DNA of 64,000 nucleotides from an uncultured delta proteobacterium (GCA_963727485.1 CAVSGM010000001.1:864001-928000), one strand, 5' to 3'. Counted from the first letter of the stretch, positions 1,851 to 30,067 are shown. Notes: generated from the letters alone by a model not told the origin. Translations and numbers: made by a program.

Positions 1851-4145
1851 ATGACGCGATCCACCATCCCCGCACTCGTTGCCGTGCTCCTCCTCGCCGC
1901 CGGCTGCGCCACGCCGCGCGCGTCCAAGCCCGCCCCGGCGCCGGCCCCCGCCGCCAAGGCCCAGGCCCAGCCCCAGGCCCCCGCGGCCCAGGCCCCCGCG
2001 GCCCAGGCGCCCGCGGCCCAGGCCCCCGCCGGCCCGACCCTCGGCCCCCCGCCGGCGACCGCGGTGAAGGACGTGACCGACACCTACCACGGGGTGAAGG
2101 TCGTCGACCCCTACCAGTGGCTCGAGGACTGGTCGAACCCCAAGGTCCAGGCCTGGTCGAACGCCCAGAACGTCTACGCCCGGCACTTCCTCGACGCCCT
2201 CCCGGGCCGGGACGCCCTGGCCCGTCGCATCGAGGCCCTGATCCGCGCCGAGAGCGTGCGCTTCGGCTCGATTCGCCACGCCGGCCACCACTACTTCGCC
2301 ATGGAGGGCGACCCCAAGAAGCAGCAGGCCTTCCTCATCGTCCTCGACGACCTCTCCAAGCCCCAGACCGCCCGGGTGCTCGTCGACCCCAACGTCCTCG
2401 ACCCCAGCGGCCACACCGCCATCGACTTCTACCGGGTCTCCCCCGACGGCAAGCACGTGGCGGTGAGCCTGTCCCAGGGCGGGTCCGAGGCCGGCAGCCT
2501 CCACCTCTTCGACGTGGCCACCGGCAAGCCCGTGGACTCGGTCATCCCCCGGGTCAACGGGGGCACCGCCGGGGGCGACGCCGCGTTCACCGCCGACGGC
2601 AAGGGCCTCTACTACACCCGCTACCCGGCGCCCGGAGAGCGGCCCGCGGCCGACCTCGGCTTCTACCAGCAGCTCTGGTACCACCGCCTGGGCACGCCCC
2701 TGGCCAAGGACCACTACGTCCTCGGCAAGCAGTTCCCCAAGATCGCCGAGGTCACGGTGGACACCGACCCCCACTCGTCCCGGGCGATCTGCACGGTGCA
2801 GGACGGGGACAGCGGGCGCTTCGCCTTCTGGCTGCGCACCACCCGGGGCAAGTGGGTGAAGCTCGCGGGCTTCGACGCCCGGATCCAGCAGATCACCTTC
2901 GGCCCGGAGCGGCGCCTCTACGTCTTGAGCCACCAGGCAGCGCCCAAGGGCAAGATCCTCTCGGTCTCCGTGGGCCGACCGGACCTGCGCCACGCAAAGG
3001 TGCTCGTCCCCGAGGGCAAGGACGCCATCGCCTTCAACTACGAGTTCGGGCCCAAGCTCACCACCACCGACCACGCGATCTTCGCGGTCTACCAGCTCGG
3101 CGGTCCCACCGAGCTGCGGGCCTTCTCGCCCTCGGGCAAGGCCCTGCCCCAGCCGAAGCTCCTCCCGGTCTCCGCGGTCTACGGGGTGGCGCCGGCGGGG
3201 GGCGACGCGGTGGTCTACGCCAACGTCTCCTACACCCAGCCGCTGGCCTGGTACCGCTACGACGTGAAGACCCGCAAGGCGGTGAAGACCGGGCTCTTCG
3301 CCACCAGCCCGGTGAGCTTCGCCGACGCCGAGGTGAAGCAGGTCTTCGCCACCTCTCAGGACGGCACCCAGGTCCCCCTGACCCTGCTCTACAAGAAGGG
3401 GACGAAGCTCGACGGCCACAACCCGGTGATCCTCACCGGCTACGGCTCCTACGGGATCACCATCGGCCCGGGCTACAGCGCCGTGCGCCACCTGGCCCTG
3501 GAGCGCGGCTACGTCCTCGGGATGTGCCACATTCGCGGCGGCGGCGCCTACGGCGACGGCTGGCACGCCGACGGGAGCCTCACCCACCGCCAGAACAACT
3601 TCAACGACTTCTACGCCTGCATGCACGACCTGGTGAAGTGGGGCTGGACCTCACCGTCGCGCCTCGCGATCACCGGCGGATCGGCGGGCGGGCTGCTCAT
3701 GGGCGGCATGATCACCCAGCACCCGGACGCCTTCCGGGCGGTGGTGAGCTACGTGGGTTTCTACGACATGCTCCGCACCGAGCTCTCGCCCAACGGCGCC
3801 TTCAACATCCCCGAGTTCGGGACGGTGAAGGACCCGGCCCAGTTCAAGGCCATGTACGCCCTCTCGCCCTACCACCACGTGGTCAAGGGCACGGCCTACC
3901 CGGCGATCCTGTTCATGACCGGCGCCAACGATCCCCGGGTGAACCCGATGCAGTCCCGGAAGATGACCGCGCGCCTCCAGGCGGCCACCAGCTCCGGGCG
4001 CCCGGTGCTCCTGCGCACCAGCGCCGACACCGGCCACGGCATCGGCTCGCCGCTCAAGGCCCGCATCGCCCAGATGGTCGACGCGGACAGCTTCATCTCC
4101 TACGAGCTCGGGGTGTCGAAGCCCGAGGCGTCGGCCGCCCGGTAG
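1851..4145 (+). CDS. Prolyl oligopeptidase (S9A) lipoprotein
   Basis: Lipobox LAAGC, AQAPA linker repeats, [14 protein letters not shown] nucleophile, NDPRV and GHG. Confidence 0.92.
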
Positions 4146-5701
4146 GCGCCGTCGCTCACCCGGCCCACCGCCTCGGCCAGATCGTCGCGGCCGAGGCGGT
4201 CGAGGGCGAGCTCCACCTCGAGGGCGAGGACCGAGGCGGTGTAGGCGTCCACCTCGTCGGGGGCGCCGCGGTTCGGGGCGGCCGCGCGGAGGATCACCGC
4301 GAGGAGGGCGAAGAGGCCGATGGTGGCGTCGGCGACCGCGGCCAGGGGGATCTGCTCGCCCGGGAGGCGGATGCCGTGGCGGGCCTTGAGGGTGGCCACC
4401 GCGTCGGCGAGGCGGGCCCGGAGGGCGTCGAAGCGCCGGGCGAGCTCGGCCAGTGGCGCGGGGACCTTCTCCTCGAGGCGCGGGGCGTCGGCGCCGGTGG
4501 CGAGGATCCCGGTGGCCACGTGGAGGCGGAGCACCTCGTTGGCCCCCTCGAAGATCCGGGTGATCCGCGCGTCCCGGAGGATCCGGGCGACACCGGTGTC
4601 CTCGATGTAGCCGCTGCCCCCGTGGAGCTGCAGGGCGGTGTCGGCGACCTGCCACGCCCCCTCGCTGGCGAGGATCTTGGTGGCGGCGCTGGCCCAGCCC
4701 AGATCCCCGGTGCCGCCGGCGAGGCGGGTGGTGAGGGCGACGGCGGCCTCCAGGGCGCGGATCCGGGCCTCGATGCCGGCGACGTGGGCCCGCACCTGGC
4801 CGAAGGTGGCCAGCGCCTTGCCGAACTGCCTGCGGGTCACCACGTGGGCCAGGGCGAGGTCCCGGGCGGCCCGGGCGCTGCCGAGGCTCCCGGCGGCCAT
4901 CAGGGTCCGGCCCCAGGCGAGGATCGACGCCAGGTGGTCGAGGCCCTTGCCCGGTGTCCCCAGCACCCGGTCGAGAGGCACCGGGACGTCGTCGAAGGAG
5001 AGCGTGGTGGTGGACGTGCCCCGCAGGCCGAGCTTGCGCTCCTCGGCGCCCACGGAGAACCCCTCCATGCCCCGGGTGAGCAGGAGCACGCTGTGGCCCT
5101 TCCGGGCGCCGCCGAGGCCCGGGGTCCGGGCGAGGATGGTGAACATCGAGGCCCGGCCGCCGTTGGTGACGAAGATCTTGCTGCCGGAGAGGCGCAGCCC
5201 GTCCCCGTCGGCGACGGCGGTGCTCTTGACCCCGGCGATGTGGGAGCCGGCCTCGGGCTCGGTGGCCGAGAAGGCGGAGAGCTCCTTGCCGGAGGCGAGG
5301 CCGGGGAGCCACCGGGCCTTCTGGGCCTCGGTGCCCAGGGAGATGAGCCCGTGGAGCCCCAGGCCGTTGTGGAGGCCCACGGCGGTGGCCACCGAGCGGT
5401 CGTGCCGGGCGAGGGCCTCGATGACCTGCGCCACCGCCGGCATCGAGAGCCCGGCGCCGTCGTAGGCCTCGGGGATCGAGAGGCCGAAGAGCCCCAGCTC
5501 CGCCGCCGAGGCGTAGACCGAGTCGGGGATGGCGTGGGCCTCGTCGATGGCGGCGGCGTCGAGGTCGCGCCGGGCCCAGGTGGAGACCGAGGCGAGGAGC
5601 CCGCTCACCACCGCCGCCTCCTCGGCGCTGGCGCCGGGCCAGGCGAGGGAGGCGGCGAGCTGGGGGGCGGCGGCGACGAGGTCGGCGAGGGGATCGCGCA
5701 T
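4100..5701 (-). CDS. Acyl-CoA/acyl-ACP dehydrogenase with C-terminal extension
   Basis: FSATEPEAGS, LSGSKIFVTNG, KLGLRGTST, RRQFGK, LQLHGGSGY and RIFEGANE. The 3' end overlaps the convergent peptidase by 46 bp. Confidence 0.9.
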   Translation of the reverse strand: MRDPLADLVAAAPQLAASLAWPGASAEEAAVVSGLLASVSTWARRDLDAAAIDEAHAIPDSVYASAAELGLFGLSIPEAYDGAGLSMPAVAQVIEALARHDRSVATAVGLHNGLGLHGLISLGTEAQKARWLPGLASGKELSAFSATEPEAGSHIAGVKSTAVADGDGLRLSGSKIFVTNGGRASMFTILARTPGLGGARKGHSVLLLTRGMEGFSVGAEERKLGLRGTSTTTLSFDDVPVPLDRVLGTPGKGLDHLASILAWGRTLMAAGSLGSARAARDLALAHVVTRRQFGKALATFGQVRAHVAGIEARIRALEAAVALTTRLAGGTGDLGWASAATKILASEGAWQVADTALQLHGGSGYIEDTGVARILRDARITRIFEGANEVLRLHVATGILATGADAPRLEEKVPAPLAELARRFDALRARLADAVATLKARHGIRLPGEQIPLAAVADATIGLFALLAVILRAAAPNRGAPDEVDAYTASVLALEVELALDRLGRDDLAEAVGRVSDGAYRAADASGFDTPSS

Positions 5702-5718
5702 GGAGGCCTCCGGCCGGG

Positions 5719-7020
5719 TCAGAACTGGACGATGCGCCGGTTTGCCTCCCGGGCGGCGAGGGTCTCGCGCCGGTCCCGGTAGAACTCCCGCCACAGGTGG
5801 AGGTAGCCGGCCTCGAGGGTCTCGGCGGACATCTTGTGGGGCGTGAACACGACGTTGGCGTCGTTGTAGTGCTTCCACTCGTAGTCGAAGATCCGCCCCT
5901 CGGCCTGGTAGCGGTGCCAGGTCGGCGTCCCCGGGTAGGGGGTGGCGATGGCGAACTCGGCGAGGTCGACGCCCATCTCCGAGGTGAAGTCCAGCATGCG
6001 ATCGAAGACCCCCTCGTCGTCGTCGGGGTTGCCCACCAGGAAGGAGACGTAGGGATCGATCTCGTGGTCGTGGCAGCGGTCGATGCAGCGCTTCGCCCGG
6101 TCGAGGGCCTTGGGGTCGGCCAGCCCGAAGGCCTTGCGGGTGATGGGGTCGAAGCCGCCGACGAGGTAGAAGCGCTCCATCCCCGTCTCCCGGAGCTGGG
6201 CCATCAGCTTCGCCTCCAGGGAGAGGATCATGGGCATGCTGATGCCCAGGTAGCTCAGGTTCACCGGCAGGCCCCGGGCCTGGGCGGCGATGACCTGGTC
6301 GAGGAAGGCGCGCAGGCGCCGGCGGGCCCCCTGGAGGGCGAAGACCGAGGTGTCCTCGGTCAAGGAGATGCGCTTGCCCGCCTCGGAGAGCTTCGTGAGG
6401 GTGTGGAGGACGTTCTGCTCGGTGTGGAAGCGCATCTCGGCGCCGAGCTGCACCGGCAGGGCGCAGGCGTCGCAGTGGAGCGGGCAGCCCCGGGAGAGCT
6501 GGAGGGGGTAGTCGTCCGGGGAGTTCGAGGGGTCCTCGGCGTCGAGGTAGAGATCGACCCGCGGGGGCCGGAGGCGCTCGAGGTCCACGGGCGCCTGGTA
6601 GATCCCCGAGAGGGTGCCCGCCTCGGCGTCGGCGAGGACCTCGGTCCAGGCGGCCTCGCCCTCGCCGACCACCACCGCGTCCACGTGCTCGGCGACGGTG
6701 TCGGGCATCAGGCTGGGGAAGATGCCGCCGGCGACCACCTTCTTGCCCCGGGCCCGGAGGGCGTCGGCGATCTCCAGGCCCCGGGTCGCCGCCGGGGTGA
6801 AGAACGAGAGGGCGTAGAGGTCGGCCTCGTGGTCCGGGTCGAAGGGCGTGACCCGGTCGTCGATGAACTCGAGGTCGTGGCCGGGGGGCGTGGCGCCGGC
6901 GATGGAGGCGATGCCGAGCGACGGCGGCCCCAGGTACTCGTCGGCGCTCACCGAGGTGCGCAGCTCCGGGTGGGCGTCGGCGTGGCGCTCGAAGGCGGGG
7001 TAGACGAAGGCGATTCTCAT
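5719..7020 (-). CDS. B12-binding domain radical SAM protein
   Basis: N-terminal PPSLG...VVAGGIFPS...VVVGEGE cobalamin-binding fold, SRGCPLHCDAC (CxxxCxxC) and TPYPGT. Confidence 0.9.
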   Translation of the reverse strand: MRIAFVYPAFERHADAHPELRTSVSADEYLGPPSLGIASIAGATPPGHDLEFIDDRVTPFDPDHEADLYALSFFTPAATRGLEIADALRARGKKVVAGGIFPSLMPDTVAEHVDAVVVGEGEAAWTEVLADAEAGTLSGIYQAPVDLERLRPPRVDLYLDAEDPSNSPDDYPLQLSRGCPLHCDACALPVQLGAEMRFHTEQNVLHTLTKLSEAGKRISLTEDTSVFALQGARRRLRAFLDQVIAAQARGLPVNLSYLGISMPMILSLEAKLMAQLRETGMERFYLVGGFDPITRKAFGLADPKALDRAKRCIDRCHDHEIDPYVSFLVGNPDDDEGVFDRMLDFTSEMGVDLAEFAIATPYPGTPTWHRYQAEGRIFDYEWKHYNDANVVFTPHKMSAETLEAGYLHLWREFYRDRRETLAAREANRRIVQF

Positions 7021-7268
7021 GGCGCCAGGTGACCGGCCAGGGCCGTCACCACTCCGTCCACGGTCTCCACCGCCATCACCTGCTCCATGTCGGGGTCGAT
7101 GTCGAAGGTCTCGCTGACCCGCGAGAGCAGCTCCATCGACTGGAGCGAGTCGAGGCCCAGGTCCTCCCGGAGGCGGTCGGTGCCCTGGATCTCCGCCAGT
7201 GGGGTTTGGGAGAGCTCGGCGACGATGTCGCGGACCACTTCGGCGAGGCGGTCGGTGGGGGGGGTCAT
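7017..7268 (-). CDS. Acyl carrier protein
   Basis: 83 aa, acidic, with EDLGLDSLQSMEL phosphopantetheine motif. Start and stop overlap the neighbours by 4 bp. Confidence 0.9.
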   Translation of the reverse strand: MTPPTDRLAEVVRDIVAELSQTPLAEIQGTDRLREDLGLDSLQSMELLSRVSETFDIDPDMEQVMAVETVDGVVTALAGHLAP

Positions 7269-8272
7269 GAGGCGTTCCTTTCCGCGCGTGGGACGAAGCC
7301 GTTGCGCTGGTACCAGTCGTAGGTGTCGTCGAAGGTGGCCTCGAGGGGCCGGGCGAGGTGCCCGAGCTCGCCGCGGGCGAGGGCGTCGTCGACGGGCTGG
7401 CCGTGGACGATGAGGTCGACCAGCTCCCGGGAGAGCCGCGGCCGCTCGGCGGTGCCCCGGCACCTGGCCTCCTCGGCGTCGGCGAAGGCCACCGCCTCCT
7501 CGGCGGCGAGGCGACGGGTCGGCGGCTCGACCCCGAGGCGCCGGGCCAGCCGGTCGATCAGGGTGGACACCGGGAGGCCGTGGCCGGCGAGGATGTACCG
7601 GGCGCCGTGGCGCCCCCGCTCGGCGGCGACGACCAGGGAGCGGGCCACGTCCCGGGCGTCGACCATGTCCACGAAGCCGTCGACGAAGCGGTCGAGGCGC
7701 CCGCTGCCGACCCCGGCCACCAGGTAGCCGGTGCCGACCTTGTGGTCGTAGGGGCCGAGGCACCCGGTGGGGCAGGCGGTGACAATCTCCAGCTCGCCCC
7801 GGGAGGCGGCCTCCATCACCGTGCGCGCCATGGCCACCTTCACCGCGTGGTAGGTGGCCCCCGGAGGCGGGACGATGAGGCCGTCGGCCTCGGTGGCCGG
7901 GCGTCCGTCGGCCCGCTGGGCCACCGTCGCCACCGAGCCCACATAGACGAAGCGGCGCACCCCGGCGCGGCGGGCGGCGGCCAGGGCGCTGGCGACGCCC
8001 GAGACCCCGGTGGAGACCTGGGCCACGGTGTCCCCGGCGTAGCGCGGGTAGTGGCCGGCGGCGAAGAACACCACGTCGCTGCCGGCCATGGCGTCGGCGA
8101 GCTGGGCCCGGTCCCCGAGGTCGGCGGACACCAGGGGCACCCCGAGGCGGCGGGCGAAGATGGTGTTGCTGGACCGCCGGCGTCCGGCGCGCACCTCGTG
8201 GCCCGCGGCCTTCAGGGCCTCGGCGAGGTTGAGACCCAGGAAGCCCGTGCCCCCGAGAATCAGGGCATTCAC
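7265..8272 (-). CDS. NAD-dependent epimerase/dehydratase (extended SDR, HpnA/dihydroflavonol reductase-like)
   Basis: GGTGFLG, YHAVK (YxxxK), PTGCLGPYD and VDARDVA...GRHGARYILAG. C-terminal part of ORF 7265..10066. Confidence 0.85.
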   Translation of the reverse strand: MNALILGGTGFLGLNLAEALKAAGHEVRAGRRRSSNTIFARRLGVPLVSADLGDRAQLADAMAGSDVVFFAAGHYPRYAGDTVAQVSTGVSGVASALAAARRAGVRRFVYVGSVATVAQRADGRPATEADGLIVPPPGATYHAVKVAMARTVMEAASRGELEIVTACPTGCLGPYDHKVGTGYLVAGVGSGRLDRFVDGFVDMVDARDVARSLVVAAERGRHGARYILAGHGLPVSTLIDRLARRLGVEPPTRRLAAEEAVAFADAEEARCRGTAERPRLSRELVDLIVHGQPVDDALARGELGHLARPLEATFDDTYDWYQRNGFVPRAERNAS

Positions 8273-9883
8273 GGCACCGGCTCCAGGGACCTGAGGGACA
8301 GGTGGTCGACCCGGATGCCGAGGCGGGCGAGGAGGACGCCGTTGACCTGCTTCTCCAGGGCCTTGTGGGCGGCCGGGTCGCCGTCGAGCTCGAGGACCAG
8401 GTCCTCGGTGCCGGTGGCGGGGTTGGGGCGGGCGTGGGCCCGGGGCAGGGCCGCCGCCAGGGCCGGGTCCTCGGCGAGGACCGCCTCCACGTCGGCGGGG
8501 TAGTAGTTGCGGCCCATCTTGATGACCATGGGCTTGCGCCGCCCGGTGATGTGGAGCCGGCCGTCGGAGACCACCCCCAGGTCGCCGGTGCGCAGCCACC
8601 CGTCCTGGAGCACGGCGGCGGTGGCTCCGGGGCGCCGGTAGTAGCCCTGCATCGACGAGGGGCTCGAGACCCGGATCTCGCCGACCCGGCCCGGGGGCAG
8701 GAGCGCGTCGTCGGGGCCGAAGAATCCCCACCGACTGCCCGGGCAGGGGGCGGCCCACCGAGACCACGTCGCCCTCCAGGGTGGGGACGGTGTGGATCGG
8801 CTCGCCGGGGGCGGGGCAGGTGGCGGCCAGGGCGTTCTCCGCGAGGCCGTAGAGGGGCGTGAGGCTCGCCGGGTCCAGGCCCGCGGGGGCGAAGCGGCTG
8901 GCGAAGGCGTCGAGGGTCGCCGGGCGCACCATCTCGGCGCCGTCGAGGGCGAGGCGCAGGCTCGAGAGGTCGAGGCCCGCCAGGTGGCGCTCGGTGACCC
9001 GCCGGGCGGCGAGGTGGTAGCCGGCGTTGGGTCCCGCGGTCACGGTGGCCCGGAAGCGCGAGAGAGCGCCGAGCCAGCGGTGGGGCCGCATCAGGAAGGC
9101 CTCCGGGGGCATCACGTGGACCGGGAAGTGGAACCGGAGGCTGGTGAGCAGGACCCCGATGAGGCCCATGTCGTGGACCAGCGGGATCCAGACCACGCCC
9201 ACGTCCCGGTCGTCGAAGCCGAGGGCGGCCCCGAGTCCCTCGACGTTCAAGGCGATCTGCCGGTGGGTGAGGGCGACGCCGGCGGGGCGGACCACCGGGC
9301 CCGAGGTGTACTGGAGGAGGGCCAGGTCGTCGGGATCCGGATCGGGGAGCCGGCCGCCGAGGCCCTTCGCGGTGTCGAGATCCTCGACCAGCACCAGGCC
9401 CTCGGGACGCCCCAGCCGGCCGAGGAGGGCGGCGGCGGCGGTCTCGGCCCGGCGGGTGGTGACGAAGAGCCGGGCGTCGGCGTCGGCGACCACGCCCTCG
9501 AAGCCGGCGACGTAGGCGTCCACCAATCCCAGGGTCAGGGGCATGGGGCAGGGCACGGGGACCCCGCCGGCGAGCCAGGTGCCGAAGAAGCCGAAGAGGA
9601 AGGCCTCGGAGGTGGGGACCAGGATCACCACCCGGTCACCGGGGGCGAGCCCCCGGGCCCGGAGGGCGCGGGCGTAGCGCACCGCGCCGTCGCGGACCGC
9701 CTGCCACGAGAGGGGATGGGAGGCGTCGGCGGTGTCGAGGAGGTCGACGAAGAGGCCGTCGGGATCCTTGACCGCCGCGGCGTCGAGGGCCCCGAGGAGG
9801 CTCGGCCAGGGCGGCTCGGTCAGGGGTGGACCATCCAGGCGGGAGGTCCCCACGGGGGCCCGGGCATCGTCCATGGGAAGCAT
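8269..9883 (-). CDS. Fatty acyl-AMP ligase-like adenylate-forming protein; one frameshift near 8724; degenerate motifs
   Basis: WIPLVHDMGLIG, YGLAENALAA, WLRTGDLG and GRNYYPADVE. N- and C-halves lie in different frames and are rejoined by removing one base. Confidence 0.8.
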
Positions 9884-9915
9884 GGACGAGTGGTAGGCCT
9901 CCCGGCCCGGGAGGT

Positions 9916-9933
9916 CACTGACCTGGATCAGTG
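9916..9933. promoter_or_regulatory. FNR/CRP-type palindromic binding site
   Basis: CACTGA-N6-TCAGTG perfect dyad. Minus strand reads CTGAT-CCAG-GTCAG versus FNR consensus TTGAT-N4-ATCAA. Centred 41.5 bp upstream of the ATG at 9883. Confidence 0.7.
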
Positions 9934-9977
9934 TTTTGGCACTTGATCGGGCTGGCAATCGCCCTAAGCTGCACCTG

Positions 9978-10658
9978 ATGCAGACAATGCGCCGATCCTG
10001 TGCCGTCCGGGACGCGGGTCTCCGCCTCCGGGAGGCGTGCACGGCCTGCGAGGGCCGCCCTGCCACGGGGATGATCTCCCTGGGGCGTCACCAGGTGCTC
10101 CACGTCGAGGGCGACCGCGGCGGGGTCATCTACGCGGTGGTCGAGGGCACCCTCTGGGAGAGCCGCGCCACCGCCGACGGCCGGACCCAGGGGATCCGGC
10201 TCATCACCGAGGGGGACGTGGTCGGTCTCGAGTCCCTGGTCGGGGAGCCCTACCGCAGCACCCTCGAGGCCCTGGCGCCGGCGAAGGTCTGCCGGGTCGC
10301 CGCCTGGGAGGCCGGGGCCTTCCTGGCCCTGCGTCCCGACGCCCAGCGGGCCCTGGGGTCCCTGGCCATCCGCCAGACCCTGGCCCTCTCCGAGTCGGTG
10401 CGCCTCCTCGGCGCCGGCACCGCCGAGGAGCGGGTGCTGGCGGTGGTGCGGCGCCTCGCGGCCGACAAGCCCGCTGGGACCTGGGTGCGCCTGCCGGTGA
10501 CCCGCAAGGAGCTCGCCGAGCTCGCGGGCCTCGCCGACCCCACCGTCTCGCGAATCATCCAGCGCTTCGTCCGCGCCGGGAAGCTCGAGGTCCGGGGCCG
10601 GTGGCTCCGGGTCCAGGACCCGGGGCTCCTCGCCGACCCCGCCACCGACGCCGCCTAG
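9978..10658 (+). CDS. Crp/Fnr family regulator, FNR-like
   Basis: cNMP-fold (EGDVVGLE), HTH TRKELAELAGLADPTVSR, N-terminal C-x12-CxxC, and a central EALAPAKVC resembling FNR Cys122 context. Confidence 0.85.
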   Translation: MQTMRRSCAVRDAGLRLREACTACEGRPATGMISLGRHQVLHVEGDRGGVIYAVVEGTLWESRATADGRTQGIRLITEGDVVGLESLVGEPYRSTLEALAPAKVCRVAAWEAGAFLALRPDAQRALGSLAIRQTLALSESVRLLGAGTAEERVLAVVRRLAADKPAGTWVRLPVTRKELAELAGLADPTVSRIIQRFVRAGKLEVRGRWLRVQDPGLLADPATDAA

Positions 10659-10742: not shown

Positions 10743-12358
10743 TCAGAGGACGTCGACGTCCACGCCCAGGCGGGCCAGCCCCTTGCGCAGCTCGCCCTTG
10801 TCCACGGCCTTGGCCAGCGCCTCCGCCGGCTCCACCAGCTCCTTCTCCACCAGCTCCAGGAGGGACTGGTTGAGGGTGCGCATCCCCAGGCCCCGGCCGG
10901 TCTGCATGATCGACGGGATCTGGAAGGTCTTCCCCTCGCGGATGAGGTTGGCGGTGGAGTGGGTGACCAGCAGGATCTCGTAGGCCGCGACCCGGCCGCC
11001 GCCCTTCTTCTTGCAGAGGGTCTGGGCCACCACCGCCTTGAGGCTCTCGGAGAGCATGGTGCGGATCTGCGCCTGCCGGTCGGAGGGGAACTGGTCGATG
11101 ATCCGGTCGACGGTGGAGGGCGCGGTGTTGGTGTGGAGGGTGCCGAAGACCAGGTGGCCGGTCTCGGCGGTCTCGATGGCGATGGCCACCGTCTCCAGGT
11201 CGCGCATCTCGCCCACCAGGATGATGTCCGGATCCTCGCGCAGGGCGGCGCGCAGGGCGCTCTTGAAGCCCCGGGTGTGGGGGCCAATCTCGCGCTGGTT
11301 CACCAGGCAGCGCTTGTTGTCGTGGACGAACTCCACCGGGTCCTCGATGGTGATCAGATGCCCGGGTCGGTGGGCGTTGAGGTGGTCGACCATCGCCGCC
11401 AGGCTCGTGGACTTCCCGGAGCCGGTGGGGCCGGTGACCACCACCAGGCCCTTCTCGAGGAAGCACAGCTCCAGGACCGCCTCGGGGAGCCCCAGGTCCT
11501 CGGCGGTGAGGATCTTGGTGGGGATGAGGCGGAACACACCACCGGGCCCCTTGCGGTCCAGGAAGAGGTTGCAGCGGAACCGGGCCTCGCCGGGGATCTC
11601 GTAGGCGAAGTCGGTGTCGTGCTCCGCCTCGAACTGCTCCCGGTTGACCTCGGGGGTGATCTCCATGAGCAGCTCGCGGACCTCCTCGGGCGAGAGGGGC
11701 GGCGCCTTGGCCAGGGGGACGATGTCTCCGTCCTTGCGGAAGAGGGGCGGGTTGCCGCTGCACAGGTGGAGGTCCGAGCACCCGAGCTCGAATCATGATC
11801 TGGAAGTAGGACTCGATGGCCGGCGCCCCCTCGCGGGCGGCGTGGGGCCGGGCCCCCGGGTCGTAGGGCAGGAAGGAGACTCCGTCGACCGGCGAGGCCG
11901 GGGGCGCCGGGGTGTCGCCGGCGGGGGCCTCGGCGGGCTCCGGGGACGGTCGGGCGTCCTCGCCCCAGGCGCCCTCGGCGGGGTCGGCGGCGTCCGCGGC
12001 GGGCTGGGGCTCGGGCTGGGGCTCGGGCTCGGGGGCCTTCCGACGCTGGGGCCGCTGGCCGTAGGCCACCACCGAGAACGAGAGGCTGCCGCTGTCCCGG
12101 CGCACCCGGATGGTCACCGGCCCGGCCGGGGCCAGGTAGGGGAACTCGTGGTTGCCGGTGCTGCCAATCCGCGGCGCCATGTCCTGGGGCACGATCTCCT
12201 GGAGCACCCCCTCGAGGAGGGCGGGCACCGCGGGCTGGGCGCTCACCGTCCGGACCTCGTCGCCGGTGACCAGGGCGACCTTCTCGCCGGTGACGAACTC
12301 CAGGCGGTCCGCCTTGAACTGGAAGAGGGCTTGGACGAACTTGTCGAATCCGCGGCAC
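10743..12358 (-). CDS. pilT: Type IV pilus retraction ATPase PilT with extra N-terminal domain; frameshifts near 12348 and 11792
   Basis: SDLHL, GPTGSGKSTSLAAM, ITIEDPVE, LREDPDIILVGEMRD, TLHTN and ANLIRE. Confidence 0.88.
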
Positions 12359-12368
12359 GCGTCGTTCC

Positions 12369-27619: not shown

Positions 27620-30011
27620 CTAGGGGCAGGTCACCGTGTTGCCGGTGTACGCCGCCGGGGAGACGGTGCCGCTGACGTAGAGCGAGGGGCTCCGGAGCTG
27701 GATGCGACCGTCCGCGCCCGCGCCGCCGGTGCCGCCGGTGCCGCAGCTGCTGTCGCTGAGGCCCAGCCGCCTCCGCCGCCAAGCGCGCTCACCGTGCCGC
27801 TGACGGACACGAAGATGGTGCCGTCCAGCCAGAGGCTGCCGCCGCTGCCGCCGCCACCACCGCCGCAAGAGGAATAGCAGCCCTGGCTGCTCGAGCTGCC
27901 GCCCGTGCCACCGTCGACCGAGATCGTCCCGGGGACCGAGATGGTCGGCGCGGTGATGCGCAGGGCCGCGCCACCTCCGCCACCCCCGGCCTTGCCGAAG
28001 GTGCAGCCCGCGCCGCAGCCGGGGCTGCCGCCGTTGCCGCCTGGGCTGAAGACCGACATCTGCGCGTCGCCCCAGGCCGCACCGCCGCCGCCGCCGCCGC
28101 CCGGGTAGAAGCCGGAGCCACCGGCGCCCGCAGAGCCGACCGCGGAGTAGCCGCCGCCGCCGCCGCCGCCGCCGGAGCAGGTGCCGCCACCGCCGTTGCC
28201 GCCGGTGCCGTTCGTTCCCCCGCCCACTCCCACACCGGAGATCGTTCCCTGGACGAGGACGTTGTCGGAGGCATTGAGGATGGTCACGCCGGCCGAGAGC
28301 TTCAGCGTCCCGCCCGCGGCGACGACGACGTTGCGGAAGTTGTGCGTGCCAGCGGTCAGCGTCACGGTCTTGCCCGAGGCGACGGTCAGGTCTCCTTCGC
28401 TGGCGGTCGAGCACGAGGGCGCGCAGCCGAACTGGGTGCACGTCGAGCCCGCGGCACAGACGTTGCCGCAGGCCATGCAGTTGTTGTTGTCCAGCGTGAG
28501 GTCGGTGCAGGTGGCGGCGGCTCCGGTGCCGCAGGTGGTCAGCGGGTCGGGGCAGCTGCACGTCCCCCCGCTGCACGCCCCGCCGTTCGGGCAGGTGGTT
28601 CCGCAGGTCCCGCAGTTGGCGTTGTCCGTCTGCAGGTTGGCGCAGTAGGCCCCGGCCGTGCCGGCCCCGCACTCGGTCAGGGTTCCGCCGCAGGTCGTGG
28701 CGCAGGTGCCGCCGGAGCAGACCTGGCCCGCGGGGCAGGCGGTCCCGCAGGTTCCGCAGTTGGCGTTGTCCGTCTGCAGGTTGGCGCAGTAGGCGCTGGC
28801 CGTGCCGGCCCCGCACTCGCTCGAGGTTCCGCCGCAGGTCGTGGCGCAGGTGCCGCCGGAGCAGACCTGGCCCGCCGGGCACGTGGTCCCGCAGGTCCCG
28901 CAGTTGGCGTTGTCGGTCTGCAGGTTGGCGCAGTAGGCGCCGGTCGTGCCGGCCCCGCACTCGCTCAGGGTTCCGCCGCAGGTCGTGGCGCAGGAGCCGC
29001 CGGAGCAGACCTGGCCCGCCGGGCACGTGGTCCCGCAGGTCCCGCAGTTGGCGTTGTCGGTCTGCAGGCTGGCGCAGTAGGCGCCGGCCGTGCCGGCCCC
29101 GCACTCGCTCGAGGGTTCCTCCGCAGGTCGTGGCGCAGGTGCCGCCGGAGCAGACCTGGCCTGCGGGGCAGGAGGTCCCGCAGGTCCCACAGTTGGCGTT
29201 GTCGGTCTGCAGGTTGGCGCAGTACGCCGCGCCGCCGTTCGGATCCGCGCACTGGGTGAGGCCGCTGCCACAGGTGGTGGTGCAGACTCCGGCGGTGCAG
29301 GCCTGGCCGTCCGGGCAGGTGGTCCCGCAGGTTCCGCAGTTGGCGTTGTCGGTCTGCAGGTTGGCGCAGTACGGGCGCGCCACCGTTCGCATCCGGGCAC
29401 TGGGTGAGGCCGCTGCCACAGGTGGTGGTGCAAGCGCCGGCGGTGCAGGCCTGGCCGTCCGGACAGGTGGTCCCGCAGGTCCCACAGTTGGCGTTGTCGG
29501 TCTGCAGGTCGGCGCAGTAGGCCCCGGCCGTGCCGGCCCCGCACTCGCTGAGGGTGCCGCCGCAGGTCGTCGCGCAGGCGCCGTCGGAGCAGACCTGGCC
29601 CGCGGGACAGGTGGTCCCACAGGTCCCGCAGTTGGCGTTGTCCGTCTGCAGGTTGGCGCAGTAGGCCGCGCCGCCGTCTCCGCCGCCGCACTGGCTGAGG
29701 CCGGCGCCGCAGGTGACGGTGCAAGCGCCCGCGGAGCAGACCTGGCCCGAGGGGCAGGCGTTCCCACAGGCGCCGCAGTTCTGGCTGTCGACCGAGGTGT
29801 CGATGCACGTCAATCCGCACTCCACCTGGCCGGAGGGGCAGGTCGGGCCCGTGGACCCGTCGGGTGTCGCCCCGGCGCTACCGCCTCCGCAGCCGGCCAC
29901 CCCGAGGGCACCGGTCAAGATCACCAAGATGAGGAGGGAGCGGTAGCTCGTCTGTGTTGCGGTAGGCAATGAGGGTCTCCTAGGGGTGTGAGTGGGTGCC
30001 CAAGCTGACAT
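27620..30011 (-). CDS. Cys-rich repeat lipoprotein with Gly-rich C-terminal domain; about 3 frameshifts
   Basis: Lipobox VAGC, repeated YCANLQTDNANCGTCGTTCP units, and a GGGSGG...GADGRI-type C-terminal domain. Confidence 0.75.
28470..29810 (-). repeat. Tandem array of about 144-bp (48 aa) coding repeats
   Basis: GTTGGCGTTGTC recurs at 28615, 28759, 28903, 29047, 29192, 29339, 29487 and 29631, plus two diverged terminal units. Confidence 0.9.
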
Positions 30012-30067
30012 GGATCAGAAGACCTCAGGTCGGGCCTCCACTCCAAGAGTTATCGCCGGCCGCGTTT

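Follow-up and report, generated by a model that had tools for sequence, protein, structure and literature searches.

A conserved acyl carrier protein tailoring operon with a radical SAM enzyme in Myxococcota and its possible link to sphingolipid synthesis

Gene content of the locus

The DNA analysed here (the window) is a 64,000-nt stretch from an uncultured delta proteobacterium (GCA_963727485.1, CAVSGM010000001.1:864001-928000), and coordinates are positions in this window unless a contig or locus is named. It contains five co-oriented genes on the minus strand, encoding a fatty acyl-AMP ligase (FAAL)-like protein that is probably a pseudo-ligase (8269..9883; Pfam AMP-binding), an extended, HpnA-like short-chain dehydrogenase/reductase (SDR; 7265..8272; Pfam Epimerase), a dedicated acyl carrier protein (ACP; 7017..7268; Pfam PP-binding), a radical S-adenosylmethionine (SAM) enzyme with a B12-binding-type domain (5719..7020; Pfam B12-binding, Radical_SAM and DUF4070) and a long-chain acyl-CoA dehydrogenase (ACAD) of the VLCAD/ACAD9 type (4100..5701; Pfam Acyl-CoA_dh N, M and 1). 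An earlier note on this DNA had described these genes as a candidate acyl-ACP tailoring operon induced by anoxia, and its account of the layout is confirmed: the genes are joined by 4-bp overlaps (GTGA, ATGA and ATGA) and by one 17-bp gap before the ACAD gene, and both open reading frame coordinates and Pfam place a divergent Crp/Fnr-family regulator beside them (9987..10658, plus strand; cNMP_binding and HTH_Crp_2). The frame of the regulator opens at TTG 9936, and the likely start at 9987 matches the orthologues. An FNR-type palindrome, CTGACCTGGATCAG, lies at 9918..9931 with its centre 41.5 bp upstream of the FAAL ATG at 9883. The source genome, labelled G000, measures 5.55 Mb and is 93% complete, and close relatives carry the label Myxococcota. 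Pieces identical to the locus are present in two salt-marsh sequencing runs.

Conservation of the gene set

Searching a protein database with the radical SAM enzyme gave 1521 matches at E ≤ 1e-30 among 7997 candidates scored. We fetched 125 loci, 109 of them distinct, and based all locus counts on the 52 with at least 4.7 kb of upstream and 1.7 kb of downstream sequence; the others were dropped for short flanks or as near-duplicates. ACAD genes are present in 51 of these loci, ACP genes in 50, and SDR and FAAL genes in 42 each, with all five together in 38. This linkage is far beyond chance and bears out the idea of a conserved tailoring operon. The exceptions are L059, which has only the radical SAM and ACAD genes, and L019, which has the radical SAM gene alone; the invariant core therefore comprises the ACP, the radical SAM enzyme and the ACAD. 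The radical SAM and ACAD genes occur in both relative orders, and FAAL is missing from the operon in 8 of the 50 ACP-bearing loci. There is no ketosynthase (KS), non-ribosomal peptide synthetase or thioesterase gene at the window locus, as the earlier note had stated, yet a FabF-type KS is found in four of the 52 related loci; a Crp/Fnr gene is nearby in 14. The note had recognised no described pathway with this gene set, and a literature search, which covered few subscription journals and no supplementary files, likewise gave no description of it.

Of 401 Myxococcota genomes, 56 from 10 families encode an enzyme of the window type; these enzymes occur in single copy and make up a tight clade (50-66% identity). 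We refer to the 56 genomes as carriers. The solitary enzyme of L019 (L019:7597-8898) belongs to this clade (58% identity) and comes from a Polyangiaceae metagenome-assembled genome, with no ACP, ACAD, SDR or FAAL gene within 7 kb. A KS variant, in which an intact FabF-type ketosynthase gene precedes the operon with or without FAAL, is seen in L118, L119, L124, L127, L129, L130 and L131, which make up one radical SAM clade.

The ligase-like protein, the carrier and the dehydrogenase

The window FAAL retains motifs A4, A5 and A7, but the S/T-T-G of its P-loop is replaced (QYTSGPVVRPAG) and the protein ends before A10, so that the KT(S/T)SGK lysine is absent. With six relatives it forms one clade (SH-aLRT 96) in which all members lack both features, the case for P-loop degeneration resting on these six; the remaining 13 FAAL rows of the alignment keep the A10 lysine. 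Five genome-assigned members of the clade span four families, which argues for retained degeneration rather than decay. Because its clade lacks the catalytic lysine, the window protein is probably a pseudo-ligase, and the proposal in the earlier note that it loads a fatty acid is not supported. The FAAL-specific insertion is short in the window protein, but it is short also in several intact operon FAALs, and the best PDB match is 3PBK, the E. coli FAAL structure. The reading frame of the gene is interrupted near 8723-8737 in the window assembly. Run X1 yields a short-read contig of 370 bp that spans 8677-9047 and is identical save for one base fewer at 8723. The break therefore stems from an assembly error, and a genuine pseudogene lesion is ruled out. 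Over the stop region (8173-8412) a short-read contig is identical to the window.

The ACP carries its serine (Ser41) in the motif LGLDS and shares with its clade the signature RLREDLGxDSxxSMELLS; the housekeeping AcpP is a different protein, encoded on contig C4. In the ACAD the catalytic Glu385 (RIFEGAN) is invariant in 83 sequences. Its FAD motifs and C-terminal helical extension are those of the VLCAD/ACAD9 type, and a profile search returned VLCAD and ACAD9 as the best PDB structures, which points to a long acyl chain. Against the NCBIfam model for MbtN it scores 78.7, with a cut-off of 700.

Probable association with long-chain-base synthesis

In nine of the 52 loci, from family f12 and genome G272, the ACAD gene is directly followed by a gene for an alpha-oxoamine synthase (AOS) resembling serine palmitoyltransferase (SPT). 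These enzymes have the Spt-type lysine motif GTFSK rather than the GTLGK of BioF and Kbl, and group with Spt at 81/71, away from BioF and Kbl; the best NCBIfam match is SerpalmtaseCFB (404 against a cut-off of 640). All 14 genomes with the operon-type SPT clade carry the radical SAM enzyme. The SPT-linked operons lie on two separate radical SAM branches, f12 and G272, the latter showing the window gene order with SPT appended. A homologue of the bacterial ceramide synthase (bCerS, YghO) occurs within 10 kb in four of the nine SPT-linked loci, being nearby in f12.

The source genome has candidate partners of this kind on other contigs: a cluster encoding a FAAL with an intact P-loop region and a polyketide synthase (PKS) fused to an AOS (C2:1634046-1642566, L088), and a bCerS with 36% identity to E. 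coli YghO (C3:242451-243620). Of the carriers without the operon-type SPT, G000 set aside, a PKS of about 2300 residues ending in an AOS was found in 38 of 41; those with no match are G379, G043 and G288, in the last of which the contig ends within the PKS, next to cerS. In G113, whose radical SAM enzyme falls in the same clade as that of the window, the operon is followed, two genes on, by a FAAL-ACP-PKS-AOS cluster; at the corresponding place the metagenome locus L107 carries FAAL, ACP and the beginning of a PKS. bCerS homologues are present in 52 of the 56 carriers versus 212 of the 345 other genomes. Among 186 genomes with weaker SPT matches (E 1e-75 to 1e-98, mostly stand-alone myxobacterial SPT) a single one is a carrier. 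In a scan of 34 carriers with PF00155, SPT could not be told apart from other aminotransferases. In the available parts of the published accounts, AasR loads AcpR for Spt (PMC9386255), Spt, bCerS and CerR have roles in sphingolipid synthesis (PMC11087976), and sphingolipids also derive from PKS-AOS enzymes (PMC12134224).

The earlier note had envisaged a stand-alone pathway, which is doubtful and probably incorrect since the cassette is tied, physically or genomically, to SPT-like enzymes and a ceramide synthase. We favour the interpretation that the operon modifies a long acyl chain on its own ACP without oxygen and so feeds long-chain-base (sphingolipid) synthesis, and would give it an about even chance of being right.

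The FAAL-(ACP)-KS-AT-KR-DH-AOS cluster, whose PKS of about 2300 residues carries a fused SPT-like domain (domain composition from scans of L231 and L088), is found widely among Myxococcota. Examples are L088, L092-L094, L099, L100, L231 and L233, and the cluster is likely to be an alternative route to long-chain bases. Several genomes have a bCerS gene, or a pair of them, beside it, and in L233 it adjoins a cyclopropane-synthase-like gene. Among 80 genomes tested it does not co-occur with the operon-type SPT. Divergent from the cluster, L088:16907-17989 encodes a membrane protein of 360 aa that contains His and matches no NCBIfam model at E 1e-5.

Regulation and oxygen

The window regulator has three N-terminal cysteines (C-x13-C-x2-C) and a central one (KVCRV), a spacing that differs from that of E. 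coli FNR. Its recognition helix reads PTVSR, not the E-T-x-S-R of FNR, and it falls below the family cut-offs for Fnr (50 vs 228) and FixK (65 vs 300). Of 62 distinct operons, 10, that of the window included, have the palindrome YTGAY-N4-RTCAR (with at most one mismatch allowed) at -62..-44 relative to their first gene, versus 3 of 419 control genes; further upstream there is no enrichment (2/62 vs 15/419). The 62 were drawn from 79 upstream regions after dropping duplicates and those in which the first gene is not FAAL, SDR or KS. A TACCAC hexamer on the minus strand, 22 bp downstream of the window palindrome, would give a class II-like geometry, and transcription is predicted to start near 9883. 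The four FNR-like cysteines, the enriched palindrome and the recurrence of a nearby Crp/Fnr gene lend support to the low-oxygen-type control predicted in the earlier note. A scan for sigma-70 promoters and terminators gave no sites. Between the box and the FAAL start, a GC-rich inverted repeat at 9898-9914, CCTCCCGG-G-CCGGGAGG, might act as a second operator or form a hairpin in the regulator mRNA. A near-copy of the box (CTGACATGGATCAG), one of 21 matches across the genome, lies in a gene-poor stretch at 30005-30018.

Neighbouring genes in individual relatives include those for a cbb3 oxidase, hemerythrin, H-NOX and heme A synthase. In the SPT-wired family f12, matches to the heme-copper oxidase family were found in 3 of 13 genomes, fatty-acid hydroxylases in one and fatty-acid desaturases in none, as counted in metagenome-assembled genomes of 92-100% completeness, whereas heme-copper oxidases are present in 29 of the 30 other carriers tested. 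Family f12 thus looks anaerobic, and the pattern fits a module that would be constitutive in anaerobes and induced in facultative species.

The SDR and the fate of the acyl chain

The SDR has the motif GGTGFLG and an S-Y-K triad (S113, Y141-x3-K145), and scores 192 bits against the HpnA model, below the cut-off of 368. Operon SDRs form their own clade (support 100/99), apart from E. coli CerR and from cerS-adjacent myxobacterial SDRs, and G000 has a separate CerR-like gene at C2:1616733. As the SDR is not CerR, an operon of the E. coli aasR-cerR-acpR-spt type with insertions is ruled out. Across 50 loci the presence of SDR and SPT is nearly complementary: 41 have only the SDR, eight only the SPT, and one has both. 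This last operon, in G272, also has its FAAL and SDR fused in one 967-aa frame (L060:6276-9179).

The main alternative, which we consider rather unlikely, stays close to the stand-alone pathway of the earlier note. In SDR-type operons such as that of the window, the SDR would be a thioester reductase that frees the modified chain as a fatty aldehyde or alcohol, destined for ether lipids or for a small metabolite. The ACAD and radical SAM step would be kept, and operons with SPT would employ this tailoring core for a purpose of their own. This would account for the near-complementarity and for the position of the SDR outside the CerR clade, and the G272 fusion resembles an A-(T)-R reductase. 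Further support comes from the closest solved structures, 2X4G and 3WJ7 (the latter presumably a fatty-aldehyde reductase), and from the lack of an AOS near the window operon. On the other side, a Pfam scan found no NAD_binding_4-type thioester-reductase domain in the SDR, ACP-type AOS enzymes are encoded elsewhere in almost all carriers, and in G272, which has both, the SDR and SPT would be rivals for one acyl-ACP. Moreover, the loci with SPT alone all belong to one family, so the complementarity may reflect a single loss.

The radical SAM enzyme

The N-terminal domain of the radical SAM enzyme matches Pfam B12-binding (PF02310) at 40.6 bits, above the cut-off of 32.1; Radical_SAM is matched at 25.9 bits, under its cut-off of 29.5, and DUF4070 is also matched. 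The motif C179-x3-C183-x2-C186 is invariant in 118 sequences. Ala185, also invariant, is atypical in that it occupies the position of the aromatic residue of the canonical motif, as given in the accessible part of PMC13331322. Of the NCBIfam equivalogs tested (HpnJ, HpnR, BchE, TIGR04072, MgmA and AprD4) none is matched above its cut-off; the best score is to TIGR04013 (69.9 vs 251), with 47 vs 360 for the ladderane model TIGR04072 and 23.6 vs 500 for AprD4. An alignment-based structure model (pLDDT 95) matches radical SAM folds, best of all AprD4 (Z 29.7, rmsd 2.7 Å over 377 residues, 20% identity), followed by MgmA (Z 25.3) and CysS (Z 24.5), whereas a sequence profile search puts MgmA first, above AprD4. 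AprD4 binds no cobalamin, according to the accessible text of PMC12931638. Because this is the best fold match, 'B12 methylase' is a prior for the window enzyme and not a result. An Atlas search gave only unnamed B12-radical SAM clusters, some from Fibrobacterota and Bacillota.

In AprD4 systems the reductase partner is AprD3, and by analogy the window enzyme could be cobalamin-free and paired with the SDR, performing radical dehydration or hydration of the ACP-bound chain. It might, for example, make 2-hydroxy acyl chains (hence 4-hydroxy bases) without O2, replacing di-iron hydroxylases, and could still feed sphingolipids. The lead of AprD4 in the fold comparison, the cobalamin-free nature of AprD4 itself and the invariant non-aromatic Ala185 all speak for such a pair, as does the scarcity of fatty-acid hydroxylases in f12. 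Genome G067 adds to this: a gene that by eye looks like a fatty-acid hydroxylase lies immediately upstream of its SPT, the place taken in f12 by the radical SAM and ACAD genes. We nevertheless regard it as improbable. The NCBIfam score and 20% identity are far from AprD4, MgmA outscores AprD4 by profile, the N-terminal domain clears the B12-binding cut-off, and f12 operons have no SDR orthologue (best about 30% identity, in five of five genomes tested); the structural lead may reflect merely a shared size class of 430-460 residues.

A proposed route

It is very doubtful that the operon is instead a catabolic or salvage unit activating and oxidising an unusual fatty acid under anoxia, since although most ACADs serve catabolism and the regulator resembles FNR, the dedicated ACP in 50 of 52 loci and the SPT, KS or PKS neighbours point to biosynthesis, and no recurrent hydratase, thiolase or electron transfer flavoprotein family was found among the neighbour clusters scanned.

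The preferred interpretation, oxygen-independent tailoring of an acyl-ACP destined for long-chain bases, can be laid out as a series of steps, in which all catalysis is predicted from directly observed gene content, motifs, synteny, co-occurrence and box enrichment. At low O2, the divergent four-Cys Crp/Fnr protein or a related regulator would activate the operon from the box at 9918-9931. Because the operon FAAL lacks the catalytic lysine, the ACP would receive its acyl chain in trans, probably from the intact FAAL encoded in the contig C2 FAAL-PKS-AOS cluster, with the operon's own FAAL serving only for binding or acyl transfer. The VLCAD-type ACAD would yield trans-2-enoyl-ACP, and the radical SAM enzyme would act on the enoyl-activated chain; judged by the family prior, the most probable single result is C-methylation or alkylation (about half), with O2-independent oxygenation and ring closure as alternatives. 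An AOS would condense the chain with serine (the in-operon SPT-like enzyme in f12 and G272, the PKS-fused enzyme in G000). Given established SPT chemistry, the double bond at C2=C3 of the acyl chain would end up as C4=C5 of the sphingoid base, a position modified in eukaryotes by O2-dependent enzymes. The SDR would reduce a carbonyl or enoyl intermediate. The simplest reason for finding the radical SAM enzyme always with ACAD and ACP would be that it needs an enoyl-ACP, comparable to the substrate of Jaw5, which attacks an alpha,beta-unsaturated thioester (available text of PMC13459092).

More tentatively, and in its full detail a possibility we rate well short of even, the operon could represent an O2-independent sphingoid route of Myxococcota that replaces di-iron desaturases and hydroxylases, the ACAD pre-installing the delta-4 double bond and the radical SAM enzyme methylating or oxygenating the enoyl-ACP before serine condensation. 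Such a route would be permanently wired to SPT in anaerobes and switched on by FNR in facultative species; in the window clade the conserved pseudo-FAAL would be its scaffold.

Several observations weigh against the link to long-chain bases or against individual steps. The window operon has no spt, and no AOS or CerS is encoded there, the partners lying on other contigs. At E 1e-50 a bCerS match is missing in G272, G113, G133 and G400, which include the two best synteny examples. PKS-AOS enzymes are also found in 17 of 25 hand-picked non-carriers, and the co-occurrence counts are confounded and inflated by kinship. The assignment of the operon AOS as an SPT has moderate support from the tree and falls under the NCBIfam cut-off. 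The near-complementarity of SDR and SPT also fits two alternative release enzymes, and the gene order shared with E. coli aasR-cerR-acpR-spt does not amount to orthology, since the SDR is no CerR. Methylation by the radical SAM enzyme lacks direct support, the best modelled fold being that of a cobalamin-free enzyme. Finally, a genome-wide FNR regulon was not apparent from the 21 matches to the window's box in G000, 14 of them intergenic: control palindromes with TGA/TCA are likewise often intergenic, and genes downstream of the box copies are not anaerobic hallmarks.

Comparison with known systems

The AasR-AcpR-Spt module (Caulobacter; E. coli BL21 ECD_02851-02854; described in the accessible part of PMC9386255) shares with the window operon a FAAL-type ligase, a dedicated ACP and the order FAAL-SDR-ACP, and related loci add a downstream SPT-like gene and, near f12, bCerS homologues. 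It differs in that radical SAM and ACAD genes are inserted before SPT in the SPT-linked loci and the SDR is not CerR; the window operon itself is without spt and its FAAL without the catalytic lysine. FAAL-ACP-ACAD modules such as TamA/TamT and LipA/B/D serve in fatty acid loading and desaturation. Those of the MbtM/L/N type likewise have a ligase-like protein, a carrier and an acyl dehydrogenase with an intact catalytic Glu, but the window ACAD is VLCAD-type rather than MbtN, ACADs of this operon type are always accompanied by a radical SAM enzyme, and their FAAL can be dispensed with or is degenerate.

The window enzyme resembles the radical diol dehydratase AprD4 in fold, size, domain layout and the pairing of a radical SAM enzyme with a reductase. 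It is distant from AprD4 in sequence, far under the family cut-off, and its predicted substrate is a carrier-bound acyl chain. The methylases MgmA/QCMT, CysS, TokK and HpnP/HpnR share the B12-binding-type Rossmann domain and the CX3CX2C barrel, and CysS and TokK act on pantetheinyl thioesters according to their structure titles; the window enzyme differs from these cobalamin-dependent enzymes in matching no equivalog above cut-off and in the Ala replacing the aromatic residue of the Cys motif. Radical chemistry on a carrier-bound ketoacyl chain is what Jaw5 and the proposed ladderane radical SAM enzymes would have in common with the window enzyme (available text of PMC13459092). Jaw5 is HemN-like and PKS-linked, unlike the window enzyme, and neither it nor the ladderane enzymes use an ACAD or feed SPT. 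SgaAB of Pseudomonas fluorescens, in which a PKS and an AOS make long-chain bases, is a precedent for the presumed partner cluster on contig C2; unlike SgaAB, the Myxococcota clusters have the AOS fused to the PKS and a FAAL ahead of it, and the accessible part of the SgaAB source mentions no tailoring operon (PMC12134224).

The component parts are of known kinds, and their combination, with a proposed radical step on a sphingolipid precursor, is undescribed in the literature searched. If correct, it would be the first radical SAM step in sphingolipid synthesis and might provide a lipid marker of anoxia. Anoxic waters hold varied sphingolipids, with Myxococcota_A among the candidate producers (PMC11334938, available part). 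Diversification of sphingoid bases without O2 bears on these lipids, and an operon feeding SPT would explain such diversity in anaerobes that lack O2-dependent di-iron enzymes. The set is small and apparently soluble (ACP, ACAD and radical SAM enzyme, with SPT or SDR), which would make radical chemistry on an acyl-ACP readable by intact-protein mass spectrometry. The conserved pseudo-FAAL would be a case of a ligase retained after loss of its catalytic lysine.

Further observations

A second radical SAM family of about 420 aa, with a weak best match to Tes (57 vs a cut-off of 450), is encoded near the operon in 13 loci and is present in 30 of the 56 carriers versus 24 of the 345 other genomes (G000:C2:617675-618952, which is L091; also L074, L079, L080, L198, L202, L207, L208 and L212). 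Its gene often adjoins the same type of Crp/Fnr gene or other B12-radical SAM genes, and in G360 it adjoins spt-cerS-cerR; it may be another low-O2 lipid-modifying enzyme. In G000 it lies directly downstream of genes resembling anaerobic benzoyl-CoA reductase (C2:619075-626638), and genes resembling aerobic BoxC/BoxB are found at C1:978213-981360, both judged by eye; together they suggest a facultative aromatic degrader. Within the window, the 3' end of the ACAD gene shares 46 bp (4100-4145) with a convergent prolyl oligopeptidase gene, and a PilT-like gene at 10743-12360 is seemingly split over two frames, probably by a second assembly frameshift.

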